The notes: generated by a model not told the origin, from the letters alone. Counted from the first letter of the stretch, positions 13,976 through 43,935 are shown. The stretch: 64,000 nt of DNA from Bacteroidota bacterium (GCA_947478005.1 CANJVG010000006.1:35-64034), one strand, 5' to 3'. Numbers and translations: made by a program.

Positions 13976-14206
13976 GAGAATAAGTATTCCTGAAACAGGA
14001 ATACTTATTCTCAACCCAGGAATAGTTATTCTCAGGATAGGAATAGTTATTCCTGTTTTAGAAATACTTATTCCTAAGTTAGGAGTACTTATTCTCGTTA
14101 CAGGAATAGATATTCTTGAAATAGGAATACTTATTCTCAACTCAGAAATAGTTATTCTCAGGATAGGAATAGTTATTCCTGTCTTAGGAATAACTATTCC
14201 TAAGTT
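13976..14206. repeat. Tandem array 1: 11 x 21 bp, consensus AGGAATA-NN-TATTCYY-N5
   Basis: Unit starts were indexed at 13976, 13997, 14018 ... 14186 with no phase drift. Three units are perfect 7-2-7 palindromes. Confidence 0.9.
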
Positions 14207-14506
14207 GTGTTGATGGCTTGCAAAGGCTTTACATTTACCTTCCTATGGTTGTAGCGAACGGTTGAAACATGGATGGCAGCGGCAGAAATAATAACTCCGA
14301 TGCACCGACTCTGGATGATTGCTATGCAAACAAGAAGGCGAATGTGCCAAACTAAAATCAGAACGCTCCGATTATCAGTTTCCGAATTTCAATGAATGGG
14401 TTTGTCCTTTGACCTCCTGTTCCCAAGAAACGGCTTTCTGTTTTTGTCTGACAGGGACTGCCTTTGAACACAGGCCATCTGCAACCATTCATCTCACATT
14501 TTAATC

Positions 14507-14514
14507 TACATTTG
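14507..14514 (+). promoter_or_regulatory. Candidate -7 box TACATTTG
   Basis: It matches TAnnTTTG and lies 25 nt upstream of the ATG at 14539. No clear -33 TTG is present. Confidence 0.3.
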
Positions 14515-14538
14515 TTACTCTATATAATTCCAATCTTC

Positions 14539-17500
14539 ATGATGAAAAGGTACCCGCTGATTTTTGCTTTTGTAATGGCGCTGTTTGTTTCGCTGAACGC
14601 CCAGGTGGTTATCAACGAATTTTCGGCTGCCAACAAAACAGACTATGCCGATGTAAGCGGTAATTATTACGATTGGATAGAGCTATATAACCCCACTGCT
14701 TCTGCCGTAAATATTGGCGGCTGGTTTTTGGCCGATAACCCCGGCAACTTGGTTAAATGGCCAATTCCGGCTGGCGTTACTATTCCGTCTCATGGCTTCA
14801 AAGTTTTTTTCTGTTCCAATTTAGATGGTCTGTTCAACGGACAATACCACACCAATTTCAAACTCACTCAATCCGATACTTCGGAAGTAATTATTCTTTC
14901 GAATGCCTCGGTAACTATTGTTGATTCCATCACTCTTTTCCCTAACCGGGTAGACCAGTCGCGCGGTAGAAACGCAGATGGTTCGTTGGTATGGGGCGTG
15001 TATCAAAATTCCACTCCTAATGCTACTAACAATGTGCAAACGGCTTACACCGATTATGTGCCCAAGGTGCAGTTCAGTTTACCCGCAGGGTTTTACACAG
15101 GCACGCAGTCGGTTTCGCTTAGTTGCCCAATGGCCAACACCAAGATTCGCTATACCACCAACGGTTCTAACCCAACCACTGCTTCAACGCTTTATACAGG
15201 ACCCATCAGCGTTTCCGCCAATACCGTTATTCGCGCAAGAGCCTATGACAATGCCGGTCTTTATGTCGGCAGTTTCACCGAAAACAATACCTACTTTATA
15301 AATGAAACGCATACCCTGCCCGTTTTGTCACTTGCATCTGACCAGTTCAATAATTTGTTTCAGAGCAACGTAAATTCCATTGTGGGCAGCATGGAATATT
15401 TCGGTACCAACGGCAGTCAGATTTTTGAAATAGAAAGTGAATATTCTCCGCATGGAAACGATTCCTGGGCCTATCCGCAAAAGGGGATGGATTTTAATGT
15501 AGAAGATGAATACGGCACCGGTAAAGACATAAACTATAAAATGTTTAGCACCACTCCGCGCCATCACTACAACTGGTTGATTTTGAAAGCGGCTGCGAGT
15601 GATAATTTCCCCGGCAATTTGCCCAATCCCGCAGCGCATATTCGTGATGCCTATGTGCAAACCCTGGCTGAAAAATTCAAGCTCAATGTTGATTTAAGAA
15701 GAATGGAACATTGTTTGCTCTTCATCAACGGTCAATACTGGGGCGTGTATGAAATTCGCGATAAGGTGGATAAGGATTATTTCGATTACTACTACAACCA
15801 AAGCGAGAAGTACGTTGACAATCTGAACTATTGGGGCAGCATGATTATTCGGCAAGGCAGCGATACCGCCTGGAACAATCTTTACAATTTTGTCATCAGC
15901 AATAACCTGGCTATTCCTGCCAATTACACTTTCGTTACCGATAGACTGAATGTGATGAGCATGATTGATGCCATTGCTATTGGACTTTATACAGTCGACA
16001 GCGATTGGCTGAATTGGAACACCGCCTGGTGGCGTGGGCGCAAGCAGCCAAACATACAAAAGTGGAAATACTGGTTGTGGGATGAAGACAATACCTTCGA
16101 TTTAGGAGAGGATTTTACCGGATGGGGTAACACCGGCAACACAGCTAATCCTTGCGATATAAATACAGCAAGTGGAGGAGGACCCGATTTCAGCAATCTG
16201 AATATTGGTCCCGCTATGGGGCATATTGTCATCTTCAATGCACTGATGCAGAACCCTGCCTTCAAGCAACTGTACATTAATCGTTTTGCCGATTTAATTA
16301 ACACTGCGTTCAGTTGCACCAACATGACCAATCACCTCGATACGATGATTGCACGCATTCAGCCCGAAATGCAACGGCAATGTACGCGTTGGAGCGGAAG
16401 CTACACCCAGTGGCAACAGAATGTGCAGTATCTGCGCAATCAAATCACCGGTCGATGTGCGTTTATTGGAGGTGCGATGGACACTTGCTATCATGTAACA
16501 GGACCTTATCCATTGGTGGTGAATACTTTTCCTGCAAACAGCGGTACTGTTACCGTGAATACGATTACCCCTACTGTTTATCCATGGTACTCGACCTATT
16601 TTGGCGGAGTTGATTTGGTTTTCAAAGCAAATGCCAATGTAGGCTATCAGTTCTCGCATTGGACGATTCAAAACCATACAATCACTCCGGGCATTGCTAA
16701 TGATAGTATATGGTTTAATCTGTTGAACACGGGTGATAGCCTCACGGCTGTTTTCATCCGTACCGATTCAGTTCACCTTACGGTGCTTACCAATCCCGTA
16801 GCTGCGGGCAATATTTCGGTGAATGGCATTATGCCTTCTTCTTATCCATATACTTTCACTTTTGCTGATAGCACGGTATTGACAATTACAGAAACAGCGA
16901 ATACCGGATTTATCTTTAATAACTGGACTATTCTTCATCATGTACTCCTGCCAAATAATAATGCTCAGAATGTGGGCTTCATGATTTTGGATAATGATAC
17001 CCTCACCGCAAATTACACTGTGATTCCTGATAGTGCGAACCTAACGGTAATGGCTAATATTCCTGCTGCGGGAACTGTCACTGTGAATTCCAGTGTTGTA
17101 TCTGTTTATCCTACAGTTCTACGTTATCAAGGCGGAACTCTCCTGAATATTTCTGTTACTCCAAATATTGGTTACAATTTCGTAAACTGGACGTTGAATC
17201 ATCATGTTATAAATCCGAACAACACGGCCATCAACGGCACTTTCACCATCAATCAGGATGATACGCTCACAGCAGTTTTTGCCGCCATTCCGGATAGTGT
17301 TGATTTAACCGTGTTGGAGAATATTTCCGGTGCTGGTTTTGTAGCGGTTAATTCAGCATTTATATCGGCTTACCCTACAGTGTTGCGTTTTGAATCAGGA
17401 ATCTTGCTAAATATTTCTGCCACTCCGAATATCGGATATAACTTTGTGAATTGGACATTGAACCACCATGTCGTAAGTCCGAACAACAACGCCATTACCG

Positions 17501-19221
17501 GTACATTTACGATTACCCAAGATGATACACTCACGGCTAATTATTCGGTTATTCCTGACAGTGCTGATTTAACGGTGATGGCAAACATTCCTGCCGGTGG
17601 TAGCGTTACGGTAAACGGAAATGTAGTTACTACCTATCCTACTACAAACCGATACGCGAGTGCTACGCTGTTGAATTTGTCTGCTACGCCTAATGTGGGT
17701 TATAACTTTGTGAATTGGAGCTTAAATCACCATGTTGTTAATCCGAATAACAACGCCATCAGCGGTTCGTTTACGATTAGCCAGATAGATACACTCACGG
17801 CTAATTTTGCGCTGGTGCCTGACAGCGCCAATCTGGTGGTGGTGGCCAATATTCCTGCCGGTGGCAGTGTCAATCTTAACGCGAATATCATCTCCACATA
17901 TCCTACACTCATTCATCAGGCAACCGGATTGCTGATGAACATTACGGCTCTGCCGAATACAGGTTATAGCTTTGTAAACTGGTCAATTGCTCATCACACC
18001 ATCAATCCGAACACGAATGCTTCCACCGCTTCATTCACTTTCACACAAAGTGATACGCTGTTTGTGAACTTTCAGGCAAACGTGGCCAATCACAATGTGG
18101 TTGTTCAGGCTCTTCCCGCTAACGGTGGAGATGTAACTGTGAACGGCACTTTGTATGCTCATCCGAATTATCCCTACGCCTTGAGTGTGGCAGATGGAAG
18201 TGTTTTAAACGTTGGTGCTACTGCAAGCAATGGTTTTCAGTTTACCGGATGGCATGTGGTCTATGCTGCTGCTTTACCATCAGCTACTGCCAACCCCATG
18301 AGTTGCACGATTACTCAGAGTGATACTATCTACGCTCAGTTTGCCCAGATTCCTGTGCCTGATTCATTTAATATTACCGTGCAGGCAGTTCCTGCCACAG
18401 GCGGAGATGTTTCGGTGAATGGAGTTTCATATCCAAGCCCGGGTTATCCTTATACGCTTCGCGTAGAAACAGGAACACAATTAACCGTGAACGAAACTCC
18501 GAATCCTACTTATCACTTTATTAACTGGCAGTTGTTGCATCATAGTCCTATCCCGAATGCCACTGCTCTTCCTATGAGTTTCACGGTGGTTCAGGACGAT
18601 ACTATTTATGCTTATTACACACAGGATTCAATTGCTATTTGGGTAGATGTTTGGGCTGGGGGACAGCATAATCCTTTTGCGGGTAATGTAAAGGTGGCCG
18701 GTGTTACTCCGGTTTCTTATCCTGCCATTTTCAAGTTTACCGATGGAACCAACATTGACTTTGAAGCAACGGGCAAAACCCTCACCACGCTTAATCATAC
18801 CTACAACTATGTGTTCGACCATTACGATTTCATTTATCACACACCGTCTCCCGATAGCCTGACCTCGGTGGTGTTTATTACTGCACAAAAATCGGATACT
18901 GTGTTTGTCTGGTTTAAAGATGAAGTAATCAACAACGATACTGCACTGCATGTAATTTTCCCATCGGGCTTTTCACCGGATAATAATGGCGTGAATGATG
19001 AGTTCCGTGCCATCACGAATGAAACACTCGACCCTTTCAATATGAAGATTTACAATCGTTGGGGACAACTGGTTTTCGAATCGCACAACGTTAGTCGTGG
19101 TTGGAATGGGGAATTTGAGAACAAGAAATGCGATATTGGTATCTATGCTTACACTGTAGTAGCAAAACGCCTGAATGGGGAGGAGATACTGAAGAAGGGA
19201 ACCATTACCCTAGTTCGATAA
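14539..19221 (+). CDS. Giant secreted protein: LTD + chitobiase-C-like domain + CotH kinase-family domain + about 10 divergent InlB B-repeats + T9SS type B (gliding-motility-associated) C-terminal domain
   Basis: It has a signal peptide MMKRYPLIF...NAQ, the LTD motif VVINEF...WIELYN...IGGWFL, the CotH-like region RDAYVQTLAEKF...INGQYWGVYEIRDKVDKDYF, about 92-aa repeats (...GY.F.NW......P.N......FT...DTLTA.F), and the C-terminus FSPDNNGVNDEF...IYNRWGQLVFES...GWNG. Confidence 0.8.
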   Translation: MMKRYPLIFAFVMALFVSLNAQVVINEFSAANKTDYADVSGNYYDWIELYNPTASAVNIGGWFLADNPGNLVKWPIPAGVTIPSHGFKVFFCSNLDGLFNGQYHTNFKLTQSDTSEVIILSNASVTIVDSITLFPNRVDQSRGRNADGSLVWGVYQNSTPNATNNVQTAYTDYVPKVQFSLPAGFYTGTQSVSLSCPMANTKIRYTTNGSNPTTASTLYTGPISVSANTVIRARAYDNAGLYVGSFTENNTYFINETHTLPVLSLASDQFNNLFQSNVNSIVGSMEYFGTNGSQIFEIESEYSPHGNDSWAYPQKGMDFNVEDEYGTGKDINYKMFSTTPRHHYNWLILKAAASDNFPGNLPNPAAHIRDAYVQTLAEKFKLNVDLRRMEHCLLFINGQYWGVYEIRDKVDKDYFDYYYNQSEKYVDNLNYWGSMIIRQGSDTAWNNLYNFVISNNLAIPANYTFVTDRLNVMSMIDAIAIGLYTVDSDWLNWNTAWWRGRKQPNIQKWKYWLWDEDNTFDLGEDFTGWGNTGNTANPCDINTASGGGPDFSNLNIGPAMGHIVIFNALMQNPAFKQLYINRFADLINTAFSCTNMTNHLDTMIARIQPEMQRQCTRWSGSYTQWQQNVQYLRNQITGRCAFIGGAMDTCYHVTGPYPLVVNTFPANSGTVTVNTITPTVYPWYSTYFGGVDLVFKANANVGYQFSHWTIQNHTITPGIANDSIWFNLLNTGDSLTAVFIRTDSVHLTVLTNPVAAGNISVNGIMPSSYPYTFTFADSTVLTITETANTGFIFNNWTILHHVLLPNNNAQNVGFMILDNDTLTANYTVIPDSANLTVMANIPAAGTVTVNSSVVSVYPTVLRYQGGTLLNISVTPNIGYNFVNWTLNHHVINPNNTAINGTFTINQDDTLTAVFAAIPDSVDLTVLENISGAGFVAVNSAFISAYPTVLRFESGILLNISATPNIGYNFVNWTLNHHVVSPNNNAITGTFTITQDDTLTANYSVIPDSADLTVMANIPAGGSVTVNGNVVTTYPTTNRYASATLLNLSATPNVGYNFVNWSLNHHVVNPNNNAISGSFTISQIDTLTANFALVPDSANLVVVANIPAGGSVNLNANIISTYPTLIHQATGLLMNITALPNTGYSFVNWSIAHHTINPNTNASTASFTFTQSDTLFVNFQANVANHNVVVQALPANGGDVTVNGTLYAHPNYPYALSVADGSVLNVGATASNGFQFTGWHVVYAAALPSATANPMSCTITQSDTIYAQFAQIPVPDSFNITVQAVPATGGDVSVNGVSYPSPGYPYTLRVETGTQLTVNETPNPTYHFINWQLLHHSPIPNATALPMSFTVVQDDTIYAYYTQDSIAIWVDVWAGGQHNPFAGNVKVAGVTPVSYPAIFKFTDGTNIDFEATGKTLTTLNHTYNYVFDHYDFIYHTPSPDSLTSVVFITAQKSDTVFVWFKDEVINNDTALHVIFPSGFSPDNNGVNDEFRAITNETLDPFNMKIYNRWGQLVFESHNVSRGWNGEFENKKCDIGIYAYTVVAKRLNGEEILKKGTITLVR
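16500..18930 (+). repeat. Intragenic tandem repeats (about 276 bp units) encoding InlB-B-like domains
   Basis: Blocks recur with moderate nucleotide identity, for example CCAAATATTGGTTACAATTTCGTAAACTGGAC and CCGAATATCGGATATAACTTTGTGAATTGGAC. Confidence 0.7.
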
Positions 19222-19290
19222 GGTAGTATGCGGCTTCTCTTTTGCAGTTCGATTAAATTTTCATTTTCGTTTTTCATTTAAATTAATTCA

Positions 19291-19785
19291 ATGAGCACTA
19301 CTGCAAACATCCTTGCCGACACTTATGAAATGGCTTATGGTTTGGTGAAGTATTACACCGGCAACCTGAAAGAAGTTGACCCGCACAAAAACTGGGAAGT
19401 GAACGGAGCCAAGCTAAACAGCCTTGCCTGGTTGAACGCGCACCTCTGCTGGAGCGAAGATTTTCTTTTGATAAAAGCTACCGGAGGAATATCACCGGAA
19501 GTGAACTGGCTGGAGCATTATAGCTTTGGCAGCGATGGTAGCCTTCACGAACCCAAGGTAGATATGAAGGCAATCCTCAATGACCGCAAGATTATTCACG
19601 AAGCGGCTATGGCGCACATTCGCAGTTTGAGCGATGAAGATTTGGAAAAAGACAACCCGCTGGGTTTGGCATTCTCACAAAGCAAAAGTATAAAGACCAT
19701 TATTCAACATGCCATTCGCCATGAAGGTTCACATGCCGGTCAGTTAGGTTGGCTGTGTAAAATCAACGGAGTCAAGATGGTTTAA
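19291..19785 (+). CDS. DinB-family (DinB_2-like) protein
   Basis: The 164-aa ORF shows a four-helix pattern with conserved His residues (HLCW..., HAIRHEGSHAGQ). Confidence 0.6.
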   Translation: MSTTANILADTYEMAYGLVKYYTGNLKEVDPHKNWEVNGAKLNSLAWLNAHLCWSEDFLLIKATGGISPEVNWLEHYSFGSDGSLHEPKVDMKAILNDRKIIHEAAMAHIRSLSDEDLEKDNPLGLAFSQSKSIKTIIQHAIRHEGSHAGQLGWLCKINGVKMV

Positions 19786-19842
19786 TGCTTTTAGCTTTCC
19801 TTGTTTATAATTTAGTATTCAACTATTCACTCTTTACTTTTC

Positions 19843-21666
19843 ATGAAAAAGATTTCTCCCTTGCTCATTATTGTGTTGCTTTCTTCGTGTAACAATAGAA
19901 TGCAAACAAAAACATACACGGCAGCTGAGATTGCTGCCGAATCCAAAAAGCTTAATGATTTCCTCGATGTGAAATTTGATGAAGCTGTAGCGCGCAGTCC
20001 GGAAACAGCTTCGTCCTTTGGTTTGAAAACCGGTTACGATAGCTGGAGCGACCGCAGTGATGAAAATGGAGATAAAGAGTTTGCAATTCAGAAAGCTGTG
20101 GTTGATACCATTCTTGCCAAATTCAATTTAGATGCTTTGGATGCGCAAACGAAGCTGAGTGTCCGCATGTTGCAGGAAGATGTAAAACGCACCGAAGAAG
20201 GTTTGAAGTGGCGTCACTTTGGCTACGAGATTACGCAAATGGGCGGTGTGCATAATGATTTGCCTTCTTTCCTCATCAACATTCACCGTGTTGATTCATT
20301 GGCCGATGCGCAGGCGTATCTTTCCCGTTTGAAGAAGATAGATAAGGTCTTCGACCAAACCCTGGATGATTTGAAAAAGAGCGAAGCGCTGGGTGCTATT
20401 CCTCCTTATTTCACCTTTCATTATGTAACTGATGATTTGAAAGCGTTTATCGCTTCGCTGGATAAGAAAGATGACAGCAATGTTTTGCTGGCTGATTTTT
20501 CAGCGAAAGTAATTGCATTGAATATGGAGAAGGCAGAAAAGGATAAATTGATTACTGAAGCTTCCGATGTTTTGAAGACCATCGTGAAATCTTCTTATCA
20601 AAAATTACTCGATTACTGGACTGCCCTTGAACCAAAGGCAAAAGAAAAGGGAAGCAACGGAGTTTGGAGTTTAAAGAATGGTGCGGAATTTTATGCCAGT
20701 CAATTACATTTTCATACAACTACTGATATGACACCTGACCAGGTGTATGAAACCGGTTTGAAAGAAGTAGCGCGCATTCAGGATGAGATGCGCGTGATTA
20801 TGAAAACCGTTAAGTTTAAGAGCGACTCGTTGCAGGAGTTTTTTGATTTTGTGCGTACAGATGCACAGTTTAAATATTCGAACGATGAAAAAGGCAAGAA
20901 GCAATTGCTGGCCGATGCCAATAATTATATTGACAGCATGCGCGTGAAGTTACCGGACTTATTCTCCACACTTCCTAAAGCACCGTTGGTAGTAAAACAA
21001 GTGGAAGCATTTCGTGAGAAAAGTGCCGGTGGTGCTTTTTATGAAGATGCTGCGGAAGATGGTTCTCGTCCAGGGAGATATTATGTGAACACCTATAACA
21101 TGGCTGACGAACCTAAATATCAAATGGAAGCCCTGACTTATCACGAAGCTATTCCGGGGCATCACATGCAAATCAGTATATCGCAGGAATTGAAAGGAGT
21201 GCCTAAGTTCCGCAGACACGAGTTCTTTACAGCTTATGTAGAAGGTTGGGGATTGTATGCTGAGCAGTTGGGCAAGGATGTTGGAAAATATCAGGACCCT
21301 TATTCCGATTTCGGAAGGTTGAGTATGGAGATTTTCCGCGCTGCACGATTAGTGGTAGATGCAGGTATTCATACCAAGCACTGGACACGCGAACAGGCCA
21401 TCGAATACTTTTTGAAGAATACAGCTAACGCCAAGGGCGATATTGAACATGAAATTGAGCGTTACGTCCTTTGGCCGGGTCAGGCTACCGGTTATAAAAT
21501 CGGTATGCTGAAGATTCTTGAGCTGCGCGAACATGCGAAGAAAGAGTTGGGAAACAAATTCGACATCCGTCAGTTTCATGATGTGGTGTTGACGAATGGG
21601 GCCGTTTCACTTTCTACTTTGGAAGAACTAGTGAACGATTGGATTGCAAAAACAAAGAAGAGTTAG
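19843..21666 (+). CDS. DUF885-family lipoprotein (putative metallopeptidase-like)
   Basis: It has the lipobox LLSSC, the HEAIPGHH motif, and a length typical of DUF885. Confidence 0.7.
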   Translation: MKKISPLLIIVLLSSCNNRMQTKTYTAAEIAAESKKLNDFLDVKFDEAVARSPETASSFGLKTGYDSWSDRSDENGDKEFAIQKAVVDTILAKFNLDALDAQTKLSVRMLQEDVKRTEEGLKWRHFGYEITQMGGVHNDLPSFLINIHRVDSLADAQAYLSRLKKIDKVFDQTLDDLKKSEALGAIPPYFTFHYVTDDLKAFIASLDKKDDSNVLLADFSAKVIALNMEKAEKDKLITEASDVLKTIVKSSYQKLLDYWTALEPKAKEKGSNGVWSLKNGAEFYASQLHFHTTTDMTPDQVYETGLKEVARIQDEMRVIMKTVKFKSDSLQEFFDFVRTDAQFKYSNDEKGKKQLLADANNYIDSMRVKLPDLFSTLPKAPLVVKQVEAFREKSAGGAFYEDAAEDGSRPGRYYVNTYNMADEPKYQMEALTYHEAIPGHHMQISISQELKGVPKFRRHEFFTAYVEGWGLYAEQLGKDVGKYQDPYSDFGRLSMEIFRAARLVVDAGIHTKHWTREQAIEYFLKNTANAKGDIEHEIERYVLWPGQATGYKIGMLKILELREHAKKELGNKFDIRQFHDVVLTNGAVSLSTLEELVNDWIAKTKKS

Positions 21667-21693
21667 TATTCATTTTAAAAACCAATAATCATT

Positions 21694-23520: not shown

Positions 23521-23550
23521 GAGGAGACACAAGACGATAGACCAACGACA

Positions 23551-24239: not shown

Positions 24240-24514
24240 AATTTGCTGTTTTAAATTTTTGTTTAGTTAAAAAATAATTACCGTTCCTTAGCTAAGAACG
24301 CCTGCTTTTGTGTAGCACCCCTTTGTTTGTTTTTTTAAGGATGTTTCCGTTTTTGCAGACGGGAAAATTATTCGGCAAACGCGAAAAAAAGTTTCAACTT
24401 TTTACTGAATACAAATAACTTTTGTTCAATACAAAAAATAACTTGAGTCACTCAAAAAGCAACTTGTAGACCACAAACTAAAGCAGAAGGAGAGATGAAT
24501 ATTTTGACCGATTT

Positions 24515-24800
24515 ATGCTTATAAATCGAAGATAACTAAGCATAAATCAACGAACTTTGCTTATAAAGCGAGGATTCTTAAGCATAAATCAATGAACCTT
24601 GCTTATAGATCGAAGATTTATAACTATAAATCGATGAACTATGCTTAAAGATGACCGAACTATGCTTATAAATCGAAGATTACTAAGCATAAATCAACGA
24701 ACCTCGCTTATAAATCGATGATTCTTAAACATAAATCAACGAACTATGAGTATAGATGGAGCCGTTATAACTATGAAACGAAGATTTATAAGCAATAGGC
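24515..24800. repeat. Tandem array 2: about 13 x 21 bp (42-bp super-period), core ATAAATCRAMGA
   Basis: The core was indexed at 24521, 24542, 24563 ... 24773 in exact +21 steps. TGCTTA and TAAGCA alternate between successive units. Confidence 0.85.
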
Positions 24801-26482: not shown

Positions 26483-26734
26483 ATGATTAGTTTAAACGGA
26501 TACGATTACAAGAATTGGCAAGACTACTTCAGGACAACATTTGAGACGACAAAAAAGTATAGCCGAGTTGAAGAAGGACTTCGTGGACAGACTATTATTG
26601 AAAAATATATTCCACTTGATGGGAGTGATAAAACAGAAATTAAAGTTGGCTATTTAGACGAGACGCTCATATATTGGAAATTTCAAAATCCTTTGACACA
26701 CCTGTTCTTCCAAGTCTTCCGGCTCTGCGGGTGA
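26483..26734 (+). CDS. Hypothetical small protein (island ORF 3) whose 3' end runs into a REP
   Basis: This is an 83-aa ORF. The last ~9 codons (FFQVFRLCG) are encoded by REP copy B, so the native C-terminus is probably lost. Confidence 0.35.
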   Translation: MISLNGYDYKNWQDYFRTTFETTKKYSRVEEGLRGQTIIEKYIPLDGSDKTEIKVGYLDETLIYWKFQNPLTHLFFQVFRLCG

Positions 26735-26773
26735 CTTGGAAGTTCCAATGGAAACAGGAAGTCTGTGACTTCC
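26707..26773 (+). repeat. REP copy B (downstream flank of RAYT)
   Basis: Hairpin 1 is CTTCCAAGTC...GACTTGGAAG. Hairpin 2 is GGAAGTC-tgt-GACTTCC. It ends 6 nt from the RAYT stop codon. Confidence 0.8.
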
Positions 26774-26779
26774 TGAGCG

Positions 26780-27343
26780 CTACGGATAATATACCTCATC
26801 TAAAATAGTTATAGGCAACAGTCCCTTTTCACCCGCATAATCCTTGGCACTGGAATAAACATATCGTTGAGCTGTATCTACTAATTTAGCTGTAACCGGG
26901 TTCTCGTGTATATATTCCACCTTTTGTTTCACAAACTTACTGCTCTCTAACGCTATTGGATGATTTTCCTGTTGCCAAAATTGATAGTTGGTATTGTTGC
27001 TGTTCTTTTTGCCAGCCGACTGAAATAACCAAAGCATCCAGTTGCGTCTGCTTTCTGTATTTAGCTTAATAGCTTCAATAATTTTGGAGGAGGTGAATTT
27101 TTTAAAGTCGCGCATAATATCGGAAAAGCTATCGGTGCCTTTTCTTGAAATAACCAAATGAATATGGTTGGGCATTATTACCCAGGCATGCAATACTAAT
27201 CCCTTCTTATCTATGCAATACTGCAAACTTTCAATTACAATGTCGCAGTAGATACTGCGGGTAAAAACATCTACCCATTCAACTACAGCACAGGTGGTAA
27301 AGTAAACGCCATCGGCATCATCAAATTTGTAAGCGAAGCCCAT
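26780..27343 (-). CDS. rayT: REP-associated tyrosine transposase (IS200/IS605 Y1 HUH superfamily)
   Basis: The 187-aa ORF has the HUH motif PNHIHLVISR and a C-terminal Tyr region RYVYSSAKDY. It is flanked by inverted REP hairpins. Confidence 0.8.
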   Translation of the reverse strand: MGFAYKFDDADGVYFTTCAVVEWVDVFTRSIYCDIVIESLQYCIDKKGLVLHAWVIMPNHIHLVISRKGTDSFSDIMRDFKKFTSSKIIEAIKLNTESRRNWMLWLFQSAGKKNSNNTNYQFWQQENHPIALESSKFVKQKVEYIHENPVTAKLVDTAQRYVYSSAKDYAGEKGLLPITILDEVYYP

Positions 27344-27395
27344 TAAACGAAGCTAAAAATAATTAGTGAAGGTGGTGTATATGTTTAACTGCTTT

Positions 27396-27462
27396 TGAAG
27401 TCGCAGACTTCAAAATTTCATTAAAACTTCCAAGTCACCCGCAGAGCCGGAAGACTTGGAAG
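27396..27462 (-). repeat. REP copy C (upstream flank of RAYT, inverted relative to B)
   Basis: The reverse complement carries CTTCCAAGTC-ttccggctctgcgggt-GACTTGGAAG and TGAAGTC-tgc-GACTTCA. Confidence 0.8.
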
Positions 27463-27474
27463 AACAAGTCATAA

Positions 27475-34873: not shown

Positions 34874-34918
34874 GCTGTTTAGCATAAGGTCAGTCGTCAA
34901 TAAAATTACTTTTGCCCC

Positions 34919-35860: not shown

Positions 35861-35994
35861 TATCTTTCTAATTCTTGTTTTATTTTTGCGGGTACAAGTA
35901 TTAAAATGAGCACCAATCGTTGGATACTTACCGTTGCAGAATATGTGGCTATAAATCGTACCTCTTCTTGTACCTCAATCAGCAAATACCAGTT

Positions 35995-38900
35995 TTAGTT
36001 AATTGGCAAGGTAAAGTAAAAAGTGGCGCCTTCGTCTACTTTCGACACAGCCCATATTTCTCCATGGTGCCTTTCGATTATTCTTTTGGCAACCGTTAGT
36101 CCGACTCCTGTTCCTTCAAATTCCTGAAGGCTGTGGAGACGCTGAAATGGCGTAAACAACCGGTCGTAGAATTCCATATCGAAACCAGTTCCGTTATCTT
36201 TAACGTAAAATACAAACTCTTTTTCCGTTTCTTTATAACCGACTTTAATTTGGGGATTAGTCTTTTTAGACGAATACTTTATCGCATTCGACAATAAATT
36301 TAAAATTACCTGCTGCAACATTGACTCATCGGCCTTTACTAATGGGAGTGGATCAATCTCAATAGCTGCATTATTAGGAGATTGTGCCTGAAGATTCTTC
36401 CAAATAGTAGAGAATAATTCATTCATGTTTACTTCGGAAGTGTGCAACTTTTCTTTGCTGAATCTTGCAAGTTTCAACAGATCTTCAACAATGACATACA
36501 TCCGCTTACCCGTAATTTCAATATGGCTGAATAAATCCTGAACTTCCGGTCGAAGGGAACGGCCATATTCTTTGCTTATCATGCGCGATATACCAATTAA
36601 GGTACGTAGGGGAGAGCGCAAATCATGCGACACCGAATAGGAGAATGCTTCAAGAGCTGTGTTGGCTTCTAATAATTCAGTGGTTCGCTCTCTTACACGC
36701 AATTCCAATTGCTCGTTTGTGTTTTTAATCAGGTCCTCTACCTTTTTGCGCAGAGTAATGTCACGTACAATCCCGTCAATACGTACTAATTTGTCGGCAT
36801 TGTCTAATGAGGGTTTAATTGAAGCATGAATCCAACGAATTTCCAGGTCTTTGCGAATAATTCTGTATTCCATTTCGAATGGTTCGCCCTCTTCCATGCT
36901 TGCATAAGCCCCATCTAAAATATGAGCATCGTCCTGATGCATTACTTTTTTCCAAAGGTTTGGATCGCTGAAAAAATCGGCCGGTGGATAGCCATATAGT
37001 TTTTCGCAGGCAGGCGACATTTGCGTGGTTCGATAGTTAACCATATCCACTGAAAAGAGTACTTCATCAATTGAATTGAAAAGTGTCTGCAATTCGCGCG
37101 TAAGACTATCGAGTTTTTGAAGTGTCTCTCTATGTACCGTAAAATCTTCCAGAAAACCATGCCAAATTATTGTCCCATCTTCCTTTTTTTCAGGTATTGA
37201 AGATCCTTTAAACCATTTTATTTCTCCAGTCTTTGTAATGTTTCGGTAGTCCACATTCCAAGGTGTTAGGTTTTGCCTTGATTCTTCAATCGATTGCATC
37301 AGCAACGGAAGATCTTCTGGATGTACCGAAGAAAATGGAATGGAAACATCATTTGAAATCTGCTCGGGTGTTACTCCCTGCAAAATCTGTTCAATACCTT
37401 TGCTCATGAAAGGGAAAGACATAGTCCCATCAGGTGCCATTTTAAATTGATAGATGGCTACCGAAACTTTTTCCGTAAGTTTTCGCAGCTTTTCATGGCT
37501 TTGCTGCAATGCATCTTCCGCCAATTTGCGTTTTGTGATATCGGAACTAAAAACCGCAATACCGGTTACCTCATTATCTTTTACAATAGGATTATATCTT
37601 ACCGAATACCAATACGTGTTTCCCTCCAACGTATACTCTTCCTCTAAGGTTAAATTTTCTCCATTCAAAGCTCTGCTGTAAATGGCCTTTAAAGTAGGAC
37701 GAAAATCTTCCCGAACCGTATCTAAACTCGCTTCTCCTATAACAGGATATCGTTTGGAAAAAAAGTGAAATTCTTCTGTAAATGCTTTGTTGAAGGATAC
37801 AAAGCGCTCTTCTCTGTCTATCGACCATATACTATCGGACGTGTTGTCGAAAACACTTGATAAATTACGTTCACTTTCCTGTAGCATTTCTTCCGCCAGT
37901 TTTTGCTCGGTAATATTGGTAGCAAAGATGGCGATGCCGGTTACTTTGCCCTGCTGAACAATTGGATTGTACCGAACCCAGAAACAATGCTTTTGTCCAT
38001 GAAATATATAGTGTTCTTCATCTGTAAAATATTCTCCGTTCAGGGCACGGTCATATTTTGCTTTTAAATCAGGGCGAAACATTTCGGGCACCGTATCGGT
38101 ATTCACTTCGCCAATTATCGGGTCACGGAAAGTAAACGACCTGAATCGTTCTGCGAACGGTTTATTAAATGAAACTAAACGGTGCTCTCTATCAACCGAC
38201 CAAATGCTATCAGAAGTATTATCAAAAACACTCAACAAATTACGTTCGCTTTCCTGCAATTTTTCTTCGGCCAACTTACGGTCTGTAATGTCCAGATGGG
38301 TTACCACAATCATTGGCTTATCAGAGTAAAAATGCTTTACCCTCATGGCAAACCACCGATCTTCATCCGGTGCATGACAGGGGTATTCCATATAGAACAC
38401 TGGTAAATTATTATTAAGCACAGCCTGCATGCCGCTTAAGGCATCACTTGCAATCCGGTCGCCTGCATCAGCTGCTTTTTGGCAAACCTCAAAGTAATTA
38501 CTTCCCTTTCCGCTTCCCAGCATCAAAGTATCCCCGTTTTCGTTTGCAAAAGCATTCCAAGCCTGATTCACTTCTACTATTTGCCCATTTTTATCGACTA
38601 CTGCAATGTGCGCACTGAGGGAGGATAAGACACCTTTATGAAAAGCCTCGCTTTTGGACAAGGCGAGTTCAATTTCCTTTCTTTCGGTTATGTCGCGAAA
38701 GTTGACAATAAATAAAACTAAGCCAAAGGCAATAAGCGACCACAGCGCAATGTAATAGGAGTTCAGTCCTTCTTCAGTTTCTTTTTCCTTTTCTTTTAAG
38801 GCTAAAACCTCCTGTTGCTGAATGGCAGAAATATGCTTGCCTACCGATTCCATGACGAGATTGCGATAGGGTTGCGAGACTAAAGCTACCACCGGATTCA

Positions 38901-39300
38901 ACCCTTTTTTAGCGCGTAGATCTATCAGTTGCTCCGAATAATCCATCCGCTTGTTAAGGTAATATTCCAGCGAATCCACATTTGCCCTCAAAGAAGGGCT
39001 TTGCAGACCGAGTTGTTTTAGTTGCTTAAGGTGCAAAAATACCGTATCTGCCGCTGCTGAATATTTATCTACAAAAGAGCTATCAGCTGTAAGAGAATAA
39101 CCATAGGCATAACCACGGCTGTCGCGTATGCCCGAAGAAATGATTCCTGTTTCTTTTGTTACCTCATGATGAAAACTGGCATCCGCTATCTCCTCGTCAT
39201 ACCGCTCTTTGCTTTCATAGGCGTAGTATACCAATGCTGTCAGAATGACGACACTCGTAAGGAAATAAGCAATTTGTATTCTGGCAAAGGTAAATTTCAT
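35995..39300 (-). CDS. Sensor histidine kinase: N-terminal CHASE3-like periplasmic domain, TM, about 5 PAS domains, HisKA, HATPase_c
   Basis: The H-box FSYSVSHDLRSPL and the N/G boxes (LLSNAIKYS, DNGTGF, GTGVGL) are present. Two adjacent PAS modules are clear duplicates (LAEE.LQESERNL.SVFDNTSDSIWS.DRE). Confidence 0.85.
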   Translation of the reverse strand: MKFTFARIQIAYFLTSVVILTALVYYAYESKERYDEEIADASFHHEVTKETGIISSGIRDSRGYAYGYSLTADSSFVDKYSAAADTVFLHLKQLKQLGLQSPSLRANVDSLEYYLNKRMDYSEQLIDLRAKKGLNPVVALVSQPYRNLVMESVGKHISAIQQQEVLALKEKEKETEEGLNSYYIALWSLIAFGLVLFIVNFRDITERKEIELALSKSEAFHKGVLSSLSAHIAVVDKNGQIVEVNQAWNAFANENGDTLMLGSGKGSNYFEVCQKAADAGDRIASDALSGMQAVLNNNLPVFYMEYPCHAPDEDRWFAMRVKHFYSDKPMIVVTHLDITDRKLAEEKLQESERNLLSVFDNTSDSIWSVDREHRLVSFNKPFAERFRSFTFRDPIIGEVNTDTVPEMFRPDLKAKYDRALNGEYFTDEEHYIFHGQKHCFWVRYNPIVQQGKVTGIAIFATNITEQKLAEEMLQESERNLSSVFDNTSDSIWSIDREERFVSFNKAFTEEFHFFSKRYPVIGEASLDTVREDFRPTLKAIYSRALNGENLTLEEEYTLEGNTYWYSVRYNPIVKDNEVTGIAVFSSDITKRKLAEDALQQSHEKLRKLTEKVSVAIYQFKMAPDGTMSFPFMSKGIEQILQGVTPEQISNDVSIPFSSVHPEDLPLLMQSIEESRQNLTPWNVDYRNITKTGEIKWFKGSSIPEKKEDGTIIWHGFLEDFTVHRETLQKLDSLTRELQTLFNSIDEVLFSVDMVNYRTTQMSPACEKLYGYPPADFFSDPNLWKKVMHQDDAHILDGAYASMEEGEPFEMEYRIIRKDLEIRWIHASIKPSLDNADKLVRIDGIVRDITLRKKVEDLIKNTNEQLELRVRERTTELLEANTALEAFSYSVSHDLRSPLRTLIGISRMISKEYGRSLRPEVQDLFSHIEITGKRMYVIVEDLLKLARFSKEKLHTSEVNMNELFSTIWKNLQAQSPNNAAIEIDPLPLVKADESMLQQVILNLLSNAIKYSSKKTNPQIKVGYKETEKEFVFYVKDNGTGFDMEFYDRLFTPFQRLHSLQEFEGTGVGLTVAKRIIERHHGEIWAVSKVDEGATFYFTLPIN

Positions 39301-39520
39301 AGTTTCCTACTAAAAAAGATAACAATGGTTCAAAGAAGCAATTCAGAATAACAACCGGGTAAAAAAACTATCGGCTAAAAATGTAATCAGATAAACGAAT
39401 AAATTATCCATCTAATCCTGTAAAACTAAGAAAAATGTTATAACACACGTAAAGGGCCCTATAAATTAAGTCAAAAATAATAACTGTTTCTCCCCATTGT
39501 CAACCGGGAACTGCGGCTAA

Positions 39521-40084
39521 TCAGCCTCCTTGTTTCCGGCCCTTCATCAGTTCCTTCACCATTCCATTTTCTACCTGTTTCGATATTTTATTCAGCAGTC
39601 TCATGTGGCGCTTGTAATGCTGCAGCAGGTTATCGGTCAGCGGTACCTCAAAAGAAAACTCGGCTTCGAACTCGTCCTTATTCATCGTTGTCTTTAGATT
39701 CTGTTTTCTTGCCAGTTCCGCTATTCTCATTAGGGCTACTACCGGATTTAAAATCGTATTTGGAAAATCTTCAAACGAAGAACTAAAAGAATAGTATATA
39801 ACTACCTTTCCCCCTGCAACCTCGAGCCAAACCGAATCCAATAAATCCATACAGCCTTTTGGGTCAAGAATCAAGTGAAATTCAAAACAACGGGGTACTG
39901 CAGCTGCTTTGAAATTCAGAAAATCTTCAGGCGCCAGATGGATTTGTATGTAATCTAATGCAGCAATGTAAATTTCTGGGTGAAGAAACTTTCCTTTATA
40001 CTTGACAAGATACTCGGAGTTTTCTGTCGCCTCTGTCTTCTGTATTATCTCCAATACCGGCACCGTATTTTTACTTGCTTTCAT
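39521..40084 (-). CDS. Hypothetical protein
   Basis: This is a 187-aa ORF with no recognised motif. Confidence 0.4.
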   Translation of the reverse strand: MKASKNTVPVLEIIQKTEATENSEYLVKYKGKFLHPEIYIAALDYIQIHLAPEDFLNFKAAAVPRCFEFHLILDPKGCMDLLDSVWLEVAGGKVVIYYSFSSSFEDFPNTILNPVVALMRIAELARKQNLKTTMNKDEFEAEFSFEVPLTDNLLQHYKRHMRLLNKISKQVENGMVKELMKGRKQGG

Positions 40085-40340
40085 GGCTTAATTTTACAAA
40101 AAAATCTTTTCCTATTTTATGTGCCTTGTAAAATCGTTAATAACACACTTCTGTTTTTCGCAGGGCTGGTTAAACCTAAAAGACATTAACCCAATGCGAT
40201 AGATGGAGTTTACAACAACCATAGAACCCAAGCATTCCTCACGTGCATGACTAAACTCAGCCTTTTTTTTCGTCAAAATCATACCATCATGAAAATTTTA
40301 GGCAGACCATTGCCGGTCAAATTTTCAAATGCATTGAACG

Positions 40341-41720
40341 ATGAAAAAAGAAAGAACCTTAGCCGAACCTTTTAGAATTAAGATGATAGAACCATTGCGA
40401 ATGACCACCGTGGAATATCGCAAAAAGGCTCTGCAGAAAGCCGGTTACAATCCGTTTTTGCTAAGCAGCGATGATGTGTACATTGATTTGCTGACCGACA
40501 GTGGAACGAGCGCTATGAGCGACCGACAATGGAGTGCCATGATGCTGGGTGATGAAAGTTATGCCGGTGCAAGAAGTTGGGAAAAGCTCGAAGCTGAAGT
40601 GAAGGACCTGACGGGTATGCACTATGTATTGCCTGCTCATCAGGGCCGTGCGGCTGAAAGAATTTTATACAGTTTGTTGGGAGGAAAAGACAAGGTGTTT
40701 ATCAGCAACACACACTTCGACACTACCCGTGCCAATATCGAATTCACCGGTGCACTGGCCATTGATTGTATGGATGAGAACTTGTTGAATGCCGAGGCGG
40801 AGCTTCCCTTTAAAGGCAATATAGACATAGAACAGGCTCGCGCTACGGTTTTAAAATACGGAAAGGAAAATATCGGTGCCGTGATTCTCACCGTTACCAA
40901 TAATTCATCGGGCGGACAGCCCGTGAGCATGGAAAACGCCCGACAGGTAAAGGCACTCTGCGATGAATTCGGCCTGCTATTCGTGCTCGATGGATGCCGC
41001 ATTGCCGAAAACAGTTACTTTATAAAACATCGCGAAGGCGGCCTGGAAAACCTCGATTATCGCACCATTGCGCAGCAGATGCTTTCGCTTTGCGATGCAT
41101 TTATTATGAGTGCCAAAAAAGATGGTCTGGTGAACATGGGTGGTCTGTTGGTCTTGCGCCAACAAAAGCTGGCCGAAAAATGCACCAACCTCCTGATTAT
41201 TTCCGAAGGCTTTGCCACTTATGGCGGACTCAGCGGTCGCGATATGGAAGCCATGGCGGTTGGATTGCGCGAGGTTTTTGACCCTGACTATCTGCATTAT
41301 CGCATCAAAAGTACCGAGTATCTGGGTCAACATCTGCACCGGAAAGGAGTACCCCTGATTCGGCCTTATGGTGGCCATGCCATTTATCTCGATGCCGGAA
41401 AGTTCTATGACCATATTCCCGTTCATCAGTTTCCGGGGCAGGCCCTTGTTTGCGATTTATACGAGCAGGGTGGAATACGATGTGTGGAAGTTGGCTCGGT
41501 GATGTTTGGAAAATACGATGAGCAGCGAAACCATATTCCTCCCAAAAATGAATTGGTGCGCCTGGCCATTCCGCGAAGGGTTTATACCCAAAGCCATATC
41601 GATTATGTGATTGATGTTTTTGACGATATTCTGGAAATGAAAGCTCAATCGCGAGGATTAAAGATTGCTTACGAGCCAACTTTTTTGCGGCACTTTACTG
41701 CCAGGTTTGATAGAATTTGA
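40341..41720 (+). CDS. tnaA: Tryptophanase-like beta-eliminating lyase (tryptophanase or tyrosine phenol-lyase)
   Basis: It is colinear with TnaA/TPL: EPFRIKMIEP, DLLTDSGT, the SAKKD PLP-lysine motif, and YEP..LRHFTARF. Several segments look closer to TnaA. Confidence 0.8.
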   Translation: MKKERTLAEPFRIKMIEPLRMTTVEYRKKALQKAGYNPFLLSSDDVYIDLLTDSGTSAMSDRQWSAMMLGDESYAGARSWEKLEAEVKDLTGMHYVLPAHQGRAAERILYSLLGGKDKVFISNTHFDTTRANIEFTGALAIDCMDENLLNAEAELPFKGNIDIEQARATVLKYGKENIGAVILTVTNNSSGGQPVSMENARQVKALCDEFGLLFVLDGCRIAENSYFIKHREGGLENLDYRTIAQQMLSLCDAFIMSAKKDGLVNMGGLLVLRQQKLAEKCTNLLIISEGFATYGGLSGRDMEAMAVGLREVFDPDYLHYRIKSTEYLGQHLHRKGVPLIRPYGGHAIYLDAGKFYDHIPVHQFPGQALVCDLYEQGGIRCVEVGSVMFGKYDEQRNHIPPKNELVRLAIPRRVYTQSHIDYVIDVFDDILEMKAQSRGLKIAYEPTFLRHFTARFDRI

Positions 41721-41865
41721 GCAACTGCTTTCTCCCTTTTTTGGGTTGGTTACCATTATGATAGATGAATTAGCCGAGCCGCACTTCAGCCCGACCATTT
41801 AGCCCATCAACCTGCTCATTACACCATTTAACCCCTCCCTTTTGCCCCTTACCCCTCTCGTTTTC

Positions 41866-42033
41866 GCGGTAAACCAAGCCGGTTTGCCCGTAAGTTGTAT
41901 CGGTTTAGCGGTAAACTATCTCGGTTTACGCGTAAACCAATCCGGTTTGCTCATAAACGGTCTCAGTTTAACGGTAAACTATGTCAGTATGACAGTAACC
42001 GAACCCGGTTTAACGGTAAATTCCATAAATATA
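41866..42033. repeat. Tandem array 3: 8 x 21 bp, GTAAAC-N7-GTTTAC-N2
   Basis: GTAAAC-like cores were indexed at 41869, 41890, 41911, 41932, 41953, 41974, 41995 and 42016. Confidence 0.85.
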
Positions 42034-42234
42034 AGCCGAAAATAACTGATTTTAGCAAAAAATAGGTTTAAAACCATTAATTGTTAAACGAATTAGCATC
42101 CCAACCTCCATTTAAACACTACTATCCGCATGTAACTATTGCACAAGTTTTTACATTTGAGTTTCGGATATAATAATGTTAGCGCAAGTTTAACGCACCT
42201 TGACAATGACCGTTTAAGATTAAATTTGTTGACT

Positions 42235-43137
42235 ATGAGAACACTTTTACTTTCAATTACGATGACACTTGTAACCGTCACTTCATTTAGTCAGACACCG
42301 CAGAGTAACTTTAGTTTTGCCGATTCATCTGCCGTATGGACTCAATGCCACACTATTTTTCTTGAAGGGCCACAAGGAACTTGGGGAGTTCAACAGACCG
42401 ATACTTACAGGGCAAACCAAGATTCGTTTTTCAATAATTTGAGTTATCAAAAAATAACATCGGGATTTGTTTCGGCATCCGCATTTGTAAGACAGGATTC
42501 AACAAGGAAAATTTTTCTTTATGACTTGGAATTGCAATCGGACAGAATGATTTACGACTTTGGTCTAAATCAAGGCGATACCCTGCGGCTTTATAAACCA
42601 GCTTCATTTTTTCAAGGTGCAGACACACTCAAGTTAGTAGTTGATTCAACTGATTCTGTTGTATACGGTGTATCAAGAAAAAGAATGTTTATGCGATGTA
42701 TTACAGGGACTTATTGCAGTTGGTTTACAAATGACATCATAATTGAAGGTATTGGCAGTTTAAATAGTCATTTTTTAAGTCCATACATTTATGAGTTCTT
42801 GTCCATTCCTGGAGAAGCGTTCAGGCTATTGAATTTTGAAGAAAATGGGAGTACATACAGCTTTTCAGATAGTTGTGGAACCGTTGATATTTCCGAAATT
42901 TCATCGAATAAAATAAAAATCTATCCCAACCCTTTCTTTAATCAACTCACTTTCTCTCATGCCGACAACGCGCAGACAACAATTTCTCTTTACAACTTTC
43001 TCGGACAGCGAGTATTGCAACAGACATTTACAAAATCCACGACAATAAACACGGAGCAGCTTTCAGAAGGCATTTACTTTTATGAGTTATGGAGCAATAA
43101 AGGAACACTGAAAACCGGAAAGCTCGTCAAGCAATGA
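42235..43137 (+). CDS. T9SS type A sorting-domain protein of unknown function
   Basis: The signal peptide is MRTLLLSITMTLVTVTSFSQ and the C-terminus is IYPNPFFNQ...GIYFYEL...KLVKQ. The start is moved to 42235. Confidence 0.7.
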   Translation: MRTLLLSITMTLVTVTSFSQTPQSNFSFADSSAVWTQCHTIFLEGPQGTWGVQQTDTYRANQDSFFNNLSYQKITSGFVSASAFVRQDSTRKIFLYDLELQSDRMIYDFGLNQGDTLRLYKPASFFQGADTLKLVVDSTDSVVYGVSRKRMFMRCITGTYCSWFTNDIIIEGIGSLNSHFLSPYIYEFLSIPGEAFRLLNFEENGSTYSFSDSCGTVDISEISSNKIKIYPNPFFNQLTFSHADNAQTTISLYNFLGQRVLQQTFTKSTTINTEQLSEGIYFYELWSNKGTLKTGKLVKQ

Positions 43138-43490
43138 CGAGAGAAAAATGCTCCTCCAAGTCTTTCACCATGATGTCATTTAAAAAATTGCCCTTGCCCC
43201 AATCCACCTTCCTCCGCTATTATATCCTCCTGGTAACTGTAAGCAATCTGTTTACTGCTATATGGACGATATTCTCCGATAGTATGGGCATTTACATTGC
43301 CTTCTTTTTTCTGGTGCCGCTCAATCTGCTGTTTATGTTGTTGGGGCTTATAGCGGTTGTTTTTATGCAGATAAAGAAATACCCGATTAGTTATTGGCAG
43401 CATTATCTGCTCGTAATTCTTACTCCTGTTGCAGCGCAGCTAATTGCTACAGGGCTTATAAATGCCTTTGCTCCTAATGTGGGTTGTTAA
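43134..43490 (+). CDS. Hypothetical small membrane protein
   Basis: The 118-aa ORF has 3-4 TM segments and an ATGA overlap with the preceding gene. Confidence 0.45.
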   Translation: MTREKCSSKSFTMMSFKKLPLPQSTFLRYYILLVTVSNLFTAIWTIFSDSMGIYIAFFFLVPLNLLFMLLGLIAVVFMQIKKYPISYWQHYLLVILTPVAAQLIATGLINAFAPNVGC

Positions 43491-43624
43491 GTATGGTTTG
43501 GAATTAAGTAGAGATGGAGAGCCCTATTCGCAATTTTCCGGTGTCAGTATTTACTAAGCTCCGGAACCATATTCAATTGCCTTGGTAAAACTGCTTATTT
43601 AACAGATAATTGGATGATTTTTAG

Positions 43625-43935
43625 TAACATCATTACGATAGCATCGATCATAACCATTTCACTTCGCAACATCATTACGATAGCATCGATCGTAACCATT
43701 TCACTTCGTAACATCATTACGATAGCATCGATTGTAACCATTTCACTTCGTAACATCATTACGATAGCATCGATCGTAACCATTTCACTTCGTAACATCA
43801 TTACGATAGCATCTATCGTAACCATTTCACTTCGTAACATCATTACGATAGCATCGATCGTAACCATTTCACTTCATAACATCATTATGATAGCATCGAT
43901 CGTAACCATTTCACGTCCTAACATCATCATTTCAG
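43625..43935. repeat. Tandem array 4: 7 full + 1 partial 42-bp units, TAACATCATTACGATAGCATCGATCGTAACCATTTCACTTCG
   Basis: Unit starts fall at 43625, 43667, 43709, 43751, 43793, 43835, 43877 and 43919. Most units carry only 1-2 mismatches, and the last full unit has about 4. Confidence 0.9.

Follow-up and report, generated by a model that had tools for sequence, protein, structure and literature searches.

Unrelated intergenic tandem arrays with an exact 21-bp period in a scaffold of an uncultured Bacteroidota lineage

Four non-coding tandem arrays, termed A1 to A4, are found in a 64,000-nucleotide stretch of DNA from a Bacteroidota bacterium (GCA_947478005.1, CANJVG010000006.1:35-64034). This stretch, hereafter called the window, is nearly the entire 64-kb metagenomic scaffold MEHR18-2 scaffold_4243 (ENA ERZ28612979). 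The nearest genomes are metagenome-assembled genomes (MAGs) of uncultured Chitinophagales (85% amino-acid identity for the lyase gene), and the lineage is rare in sequence collections. The gene set of the window is of a chromosomal type and includes the nuo operon, ftsK, a thrA-like gene for aspartokinase-homoserine dehydrogenase, an acyl-CoA dehydrogenase gene, and many genes for cargo proteins of the type IX secretion system (T9SS); no tRNAs were found in the window. A first-pass annotation, made from the sequence alone, had claimed that the four arrays share no sequence and are all phased at exactly 21 or 42 bp. We analyzed these arrays and class them as bacterial intergenic minisatellites set apart by a shared period, not by a shared sequence.

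A1 (positions 13976 to 14206) consists of 11 units of 21 bp, each made of two inverted heptamers separated by 2 bp (AGGAATA-NN-TATTCyT) and followed by a free linker of 5 bp; Tandem Repeats Finder (TRF) placed it at 13978-14201 with periods of 21, 42, and 63 bp. A3 (41856 to 42033; TRF 41856-42020, periods of 21 and 63 bp) contains 8 units of 21 bp and is built on the same plan of two 7-bp inverted arms, a 2-bp gap, and a 5-bp linker, with an unrelated palindrome (GGTTTAC-NN-GTAAACC). The unit of A2 (24515 to 24800, about 13 units of 21 bp; TRF 24505-24794, periods of 21, 42, 105, and 147 bp) has a direct core, ATAAATCnAnGA, and the 6-mer ahead of this core flips between TGCTTA and TAAGCA in alternate units. 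Both the inverted half-sites of A1 and A3 and the alternation in A2 had been pointed out before, and all are present. A4 (43624 to 43935) comprises 7.4 units of 42 bp (TRF 43624-43927, 95% matches, no indels), and this unit identity indicates that it is young. Directly to the left of A2, a degenerate stretch with a period of about 21 bp (24381 to 24485; an A-tract, then AACTT; TRF 24431-24477, period 21, 2.2 copies) may be an eroded older array, although the evidence is weak; its similarity to the array of a relative described below (L174) was not significant (P = 0.34). None of these features has an assigned strand.

The arrays have grown through slippage or unequal exchange that duplicated blocks of whole units, namely six units in A1 (126 bp, units 1-5 resembling units 7-11), five in A2 (105 bp, units 3-7 resembling units 8-12), and three in A3 (a higher-order repeat of 63 bp). 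Since the block of A2 holds an odd number of units, the working register is 21 bp and not 42. TRF, autocorrelation, and core spacing agreed on an exact phase without drift, as had been claimed. The top six autocorrelation lags were all multiples of 21 in A1, A2, and A3, and A4 gave strong lags at 42, 84, and 126. All 10 intervals between the 11 cores of A1 and all 7 between the 8 cores of A3 measured 21 bp, the 6 intervals between the 7 cores of A4 measured 42 bp, and the 11 cores of A2 were spaced by 21 or 42 bp. Every non-coding array in the window obeys this multiple-of-21 period; the only other large tandem repeats that TRF detected there, with periods of 60/120 bp and 264 bp, are both coding and both off the rule.

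To place this period against a background, the lyase and NuoN proteins were used to retrieve 160 loci of other Bacteroidota, 2.28 Mb in all, which were then searched with TRF. Non-coding arrays of at least 60 bp numbered about 17, or one per 134 kb, and were about 8 times rarer than in the window; their periods were 7, 14, 21 (uncertain), 21/22, 22, 23, 23/46, 24, 25, 26, 33, 36, 55, 76, 116, 207, and 56-319 bp. The window holds 4 arrays in 64 kb versus 0.48 expected from this background (Poisson P = 0.0015), and 4 out of 4 have multiple-of-21 periods versus at most 2 out of 17 (Fisher P = 0.0025). Background matches with a period of 21 were mostly two-copy in-frame duplications within long open reading frames (ORFs). 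Chance is therefore excluded, on density and on period, as the source of four arrays at multiples of 21.

An unbiased replicate was obtained from closer relatives reached through the DUF885 protein. Two non-coding arrays were present in this set. The first, at 21033-21327 of contig L176 (GCA_964493695.1, 79% identity), is made of about 14 units of 21 bp (CCGAGATGGTTACCCAGGGAG) that contain a TACCC-A-GGG motif, and it lies directly upstream of a gene for a CsoR-like metal repressor (PF02583). The second, at 7523-7940 of contig L174 (represented by JGI and Logan assemblies, L174 and L175; 80% identity), runs to about 20 units of 21 bp with a 42-bp alternation and TRF periods of 84 and 105 bp, and has an Endonuclease_NS gene on one side and DHFR on the other. 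The two arrays show no relationship to each other or to any of A1-A4. Both have periods at multiples of 21 (P = 0.035), which gives P = 0.0003 for all six arrays against the 2 out of 17 of the background; the check on period enrichment that the first-pass annotation had called for thus came out positive, in miniature. The other relatives (L173, L177, L178, and L180-L184; about 125 kb in total) contained no non-coding arrays, so the trait is patchy. In L086, the closest relative by NuoN (73% identity), the position equivalent to A4 is free of arrays.

Across the six arrays, core intervals take only the values 21, 42, 63, or 84 bp, and no 5-mer is common to more than two of the six, which is below the shuffled expectation. 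Array flanks show no mutual similarity and no terminal inverted repeats. The arrays are thus mutually unrelated, as had been noted, and a common motif or a single binding protein for all of them was rejected, given that no k-mer is common to the six.

Within A1, A2, and A3, units differ from one another by 20-40%, and the differences are unevenly spread over unit positions, with a conserved core and a free linker (heterogeneity P = 0.0004 for A1, 0.0006 for A2, and 0.054 for A3). The same contrast was found in the arrays of the relatives (L174, P = 0.003; L176, P < 0.0002). In A1, the arms were kept in the six ancestral units although the linkers are unrelated. Departures from the dyad in the arms of A1 and A3 are one-sided, with 0 compensatory pairs. 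Comparison of two assemblies of A1 revealed 3 single-nucleotide polymorphisms (SNPs), all inside the array and none in 3.6 kb of flank. Two of these (14057 and 14146) changed a unit to the sequence of its block-duplicate partner, and the third is at the variable center of the core; relative to the unit, they are located in the center, in the linker, or where they restore a consensus arm.

Four independent Logan assemblies, drawn from two studies, carry A3 with 100% identity, and an independent assembly (L168) reads through A1 with an unchanged count of 11 units. The copy numbers of A1 and A3 are constant across independent assemblies, which probably sample one population. Other short-read contigs end within A1 or at A4, as expected for true repeats. 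Because the arrays are reproduced by independent assemblies, and because a k-mer artifact could not produce units that diverge by 20-40%, the arrays are not artifacts of assembly. One further contig from a different sample, L166 (ENA ERZ27263765 k141_3092763), is 100% identical to the window over 43819-44274, which covers the last 2.6 units of A4 and 339 bp of right flank; its left flank is different, with a tsaD-like gene joined to the A4 units, and represents either a real structural variant at the array or a mis-join by the assembler.

With regard to promoters, a Bacteroidota-type -7 box (TACATTTG, 14507 to 14514, plus strand) precedes the CotH/T9SS cargo gene and lies 300 bp downstream of A1; this box and the TTAC after it are conserved in L177, the one syntenic relative in a group where gene order is poorly conserved. 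Two candidate -7 boxes on the plus strand (TACATTTG at 42152 and TAAATTTG at 42221; 42152 to 42228) precede a T9SS cargo gene with a called start at 42235, and are located 120-190 bp downstream of the end of A3. No recognizable -7 box was found near A2. The suggested link between arrays and genes for exported proteins proved weak, because A2 lies between divergent genes and A4 between convergent genes, and because T9SS cargo genes are common in the window. Searches of PDB and NCBIfam with the uncharacterized proteins flanking the arrays returned nothing, and no regulator is encoded nearby.

The arrays were compared with known repeat systems. In CRISPR arrays, repeats of about 23-55 bp alternate with unique spacers about as long, and cas genes or a leader lie nearby; here a complete unit measures 21 or 42 bp, of which only a linker of 5-9 bp varies, this linker recurs in block duplications, and neither cas genes nor Cas domains were present in the scanned ORFs or in the Pfam list of the contig, in agreement with the initial dismissal of a CRISPR. 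A phage origin was rejected because no array had matches in IMG/VR (a single 27-bp match in a coding region is attributed to chance), and a plasmid origin because plasmid collections gave no matches.

Iterons, as in pSC101, F, P1, R6K, and RK2, are repeats of 17-22 bp in about two-turn phase, with a core and a spacer, on which a protein binds cooperatively along one face of the DNA. Two-turn phasing and a conserved core with a variable spacer were likewise measured for the present arrays. However, iterons sit by their own rep gene and origin with one sequence per replicon, whereas here four unrelated arrays occur in a chromosomal setting without a rep gene and without matches in plasmid or viral collections, and membership of the iteron family was rejected. 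The proposal that plasmid iterons are the closest analog is therefore fair as a functional analogy, and stops short of kinship: with no regulator, Rep, or Par gene in the window, the terms operator and iteron denote a resemblance of form, not family membership. Partition centromeres, such as sopC of F (12 x 43 bp), parC of R1, the 20-bp repeats of pSK41, and the heptad arrays of pSM19035, are also phased and have an inverted-repeat core. A4, with its 7.4 near-identical units of 42 bp, is similar to sopC in form. In contrast to centromeres, there is no parA, parB, parM, or parR nearby, several arrays occur within 30 kb, and they are not conserved in relatives; membership was rejected because the window encodes no Par domains.

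The remark that no Bacteroidota class with such an organization was known needs correction, since BrickBuilt of Porphyromonas gingivalis is an intergenic minisatellite with tandem units of about 23 nt, without unique spacers, located 49-591 nt from genes, and forming one sequence family of 19 copies per genome with a leader, a tail, and inverted-repeat ends (PMC4596501). The present arrays share with it a Bacteroidota host and a strictly intergenic location of tandem units of about 20-23 nt without unique spacers, but each array has its own sequence and the period is 21 instead of 23. A BrickBuilt-like miniature inverted-repeat transposable element or other mobile family was rejected, as the arrays have no shared flanks, leader, tail, terminal inverted repeats, k-mers, or dispersed units. 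Our literature search found no description of 21-bp-phased arrays in Bacteroidota. More generally, variable number tandem repeats (VNTRs) and minisatellites are enriched in prokaryotic intergenic DNA (PMC12418385). Similar to these, the arrays are made of head-to-tail non-coding units of at least 10 bp with higher-order periods (63, 105, 126, and 147 bp), duplicate in blocks, are lineage-specific, and break short-read assemblies. Ordinary VNTR loci of one genome have assorted periods, whereas here a single two-turn period holds across all non-coding arrays, including the two from relatives.

All of these arrays arose independently and recently and are non-coding, the cores are under constraint relative to the linkers, and in three genomes the period equals two helical turns exactly. 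By analogy with the systems above, we tentatively favor, with limited confidence, the possibility that they are iteron- or operator-like arrays whose binding sites on one helix face would serve cooperative dimeric DNA-binding proteins. Each array would be a locally born, fast-turnover non-coding minisatellite, with a unit consisting of a conserved core of 12-16 bp, usually dyad-symmetric, and a freely varying linker of 5-9 bp. Locking the unit at 21 bp, or two turns of B-DNA, would place all cores on one side of the helix, so that the array could act in cis as a scaffold for a dimeric, sequence-specific protein, different for each array, that would polymerize cooperatively. Such cooperative binding would select for the exact two-turn period, and the resulting assembly would tune neighboring promoters or the local DNA topology, following the model of proteins on plasmid iterons, operator arrays, and partition centromeres.

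Several observations fit a protein scaffold of this kind. The cores are exactly phased in all six arrays, and the contrast between conserved core and free linker is not predicted by plain duplication and drift. A 16-bp dyad is the typical form of operators for helix-turn-helix dimers, and the one-sided departures from the dyad without compensatory pairs would fit sequence recognition better than hairpin maintenance. The location of the A1 SNPs in the center or linker, or restoring an arm, also fits, as do the positions of A1 and A3 at 120-300 bp upstream of -7 boxes and of the L176 array before the CsoR-like repressor gene. Finally, one period with unrelated sequences in three genomes is consistent with this proposal.

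Other observations weigh against the same proposal. Four arrays would demand four different proteins, and domain scans of the proteins encoded in the 64 kb revealed no transcription factor, Rep, or Par genes; the neighbors of the arrays instead include an outer-membrane-like protein and a small membrane protein. No dispersed or single copies of the array cores occur outside their own array within 64 kb. A4 shows no contrast between core and linker, and it occupies the space between nuoN, which it directly follows, and a convergent gene for a 118-aa membrane protein. In L177, the order of the genes for the outer-membrane-protein (OMP)-like protein, the CotH cargo protein, DinB, and DUF885 is kept, but A1 is absent from the syntenic intergenic region (170 bp versus 760 bp in the window; unalignable), indicating that A1 is a recent gain and has no conserved regulatory role. 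In addition, non-coding arrays of the background have periods of 22-26 bp, so cooperative binding alone leaves the exact 21 bp of this lineage unexplained.

A close rival, only slightly less probable, is that the arrays are functionless or selfish minisatellites produced under a lineage-specific, sequence-independent 21-bp ruler, in which a mutational or enzymatic process, for instance staggered nicking 21 bp apart or a slippage bias, would seed duplications of 21 or 42 bp in arbitrary local sequence that unequal exchange would then expand. This would account for one period with unrelated sequences in three genomes, for the fast turnover that leaves arrays missing at syntenic or nearby sites in relatives, for the higher-order block duplications and conversion-type SNPs, and for the inconsistent orientation of the surrounding genes, which are co-directional, divergent, or convergent. 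It also agrees with the absence of a cognate protein gene nearby and with the youth of A4 (95% identity), and the Y1 (RAYT) enzyme encoded in the window shows that repeat-active enzymes exist in this genome. Nevertheless, neutral duplication followed by drift should not leave cores as strongly conserved relative to the linkers as they are in four arrays, there are no target-site-like flanks or terminal repeats, and the fact that we know of no enzyme that makes 21-bp duplications also counts against a ruler. Compared with a protein scaffold, such a process accounts better for the shared period and the rapid turnover, and less well for the conserved cores. We consider rather improbable the wider claim of a sequence-independent ruler that creates and maintains many unrelated phased arrays throughout the chromosome in the Chitinophagales lineage. 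The ruler could be a DNA-binding protein, abundant and architectural or filament-forming, that selects for DNA of two-turn periodicity whatever its sequence; otherwise, it would be an enzymatic process by which exactly 21 or 42 bp are duplicated.

It is very unlikely that the arrays act as single-stranded DNA or RNA, in the manner of repetitive extragenic palindromic (REP) sequences and bacterial interspersed mosaic elements (BIMEs), be it as mRNA 3' stabilizers or terminators, gyrase sites, or RAYT substrates. The window does contain a genuine REP/RAYT system of a Chitinophagales genome. Its gene for the REP-associated tyrosine transposase (RAYT) (26780-27343, or 26700-27469 with flanks, minus strand; Pfam Y1_Tnp; NCBIfam NF047646, 101.9 bits) is bordered by 73-nt inverted repeats that are 88% complementary and each contain a 36-nt hairpin (CTTCCAAGTC-N16-GACTTGGAAG), and a third copy of this hairpin forms a solo REP at 401-436. 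A1 and A3 are palindromic, and in RNA folding A1 (-105 kcal/mol, z = -13) and A2 (z = -5.8) were more stable than shuffled sequences, whereas A3 (z = -2.5) and A4 (z = -3.2) folded only slightly better than shuffles. The stems are weak (5-7 bp, with loops of 2-4 nt), neither covariation nor compensatory change was detected in A1 or A3, and Rfam gave no match at gathering thresholds and only chance-level matches at E values up to 1, by which known RNA families were rejected. A BIME-like hairpin cluster does occur downstream of the lyase gene in a Chitinophagales MAG (STL-BAC27, L008), in the same position as A3, but such clusters are irregularly spaced and lack a strict period. The L008 cluster spans 943 bp (11423-12365) and has about 15 copies of the hairpin AACCTCGAAGGtgctaCCTTCGAGGTT at spacings of 56, 57, 102, and 104 bp.

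REPs are 20-40 nt long, dispersed in many copies, and match the hairpins that flank a RAYT gene. The arrays share with REPs and BIMEs the organization in intergenic clusters of short palindromic units and the company of a RAYT gene with its REPs; however, they consist of 16-bp dyads at one locus each, are not dispersed within 64 kb, and are unrelated to the RAYT-flanking hairpin, and this identity was rejected. The initial conclusion that the arrays are not REPs is thus upheld on these grounds, but the argument given for it, their tandem arrangement, is not valid, since BIMEs are tandem clusters of REPs.

Selection for intrinsically curved DNA, in which two-turn repeats would add bends in phase, is highly improbable as the common basis of the arrays. 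Both wedge models, those of Trifonov and of De Santis, rank A3 as the most curved DNA of the window (bends of about 170 and 116 degrees per 126 bp, top 0.1-0.3%), and a promoter follows it downstream. A1, A2, and A4 have ordinary predicted curvature, with percentiles from the 15th to the 89th according to the model, and the A/T harmonic at 10.5 bp does not dominate consistently, so that a shared curvature was rejected. The helical phasing stressed earlier, with each unit presenting the same face, does not bring with it a shared property of bent DNA.

An equally slight chance is given to the arrays encoding small proteins with heptad or 14-residue repeats (21 bp corresponds to 7 codons). All periods are multiples of 3, the stop-free frames noted earlier on both strands are real and occur in every array, and gene callers placed a 151-aa ORF over A4 and one of 81 aa over the array of L176. 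These frames, however, end at the array edges, inter-unit variation follows core and linker rather than codon positions, and the L176 array is open in four frames. The 151-aa ORF across A4 (43614-44069) has no homolog among 5.8 billion proteins, save a truncated self-copy. Its non-repeat tail has a codon-usage score of -0.02, below every real gene (0.32 ± 0.07); in the repeat part the score is uninformative, as it is positive for any frame without stops. AlphaFold2 returned a single trivial helix with five discordant models (pLDDT from 86 down to 30, pTM 0.45). This ORF is probably spurious, and a coding role for the arrays was rejected.

A shared period due to coincidence or assembly artifact is scarcely credible, for although the window was flagged post hoc, the unbiased replicate comprises only 2 out of 2 arrays (P = 0.035), and non-coding arrays in general often have periods of 21-26 bp, the arrays were reproduced by independent assemblers and samples, including L174 and L175, their units diverge by 20-40%, and 6 out of 6 compares with 2 out of 17 (P = 0.0003).

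Intergenic tandem repeats of bacteria are common and mostly unexplained, and the present arrays move the question from which sequence is repeated to what measures the period. If they are protein scaffolds, they would be chromosomal analogs of iterons and centromeres, through which new DNA-binding proteins of an uncultured group could be reached; a mutational ruler would instead be a new mechanism of repeat genesis, and a 21-bp ruler in general would mean that a new class of bacterial chromosomal element exists whose members have a period, and not a sequence, in common. In practice, arrays of this kind break short-read assemblies and yield spurious ORF calls in metagenome catalogs.

Regarding the other features of the window, the two coding repeats belong to T9SS cargo proteins. 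The 60/120-bp repeat (63092-63521) encodes 20-residue LRR units in a 797-aa protein with LRR_4, DUF7619, and Por_Secre_tail domains, and the 264-bp repeat (17425-17982) encodes Flg_new_2 / InlB B-repeat (Ig-like) domains in a 1,585-aa LTD-CotH-CHU_C cargo protein. Two further cargo genes with SprB-repeat and Por_Secre_tail domains (1843-3681 and 6501-8399) are paralogous (42% identity over 312 aa) and lie 3 kb apart on opposite strands; orthologs of the former are present in several MAGs with 62-66% identity. Non-coding arrays also occur 0.2-2 kb downstream of nuoN in three unrelated Bacteroidota contigs (L125 11528-11796, L102 7947-8248, and L097 13492-13600), with periods of 76, 116, and 55 bp, respectively; the region downstream of nuoN may be a recurrent repeat-tolerant site, or this may be a coincidence. 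Differences between assemblies of the window are tightly clustered, with 4-5 SNPs in the 28 bp of 13590-13617, where the OMP-like gene has its 3' end, and with 3 SNPs in 28 bp at 46407-46434, in the gene adjoining nuoN (45594-47045); the remaining sequence is identical. Such clusters suggest short recombination or conversion tracts between strains.

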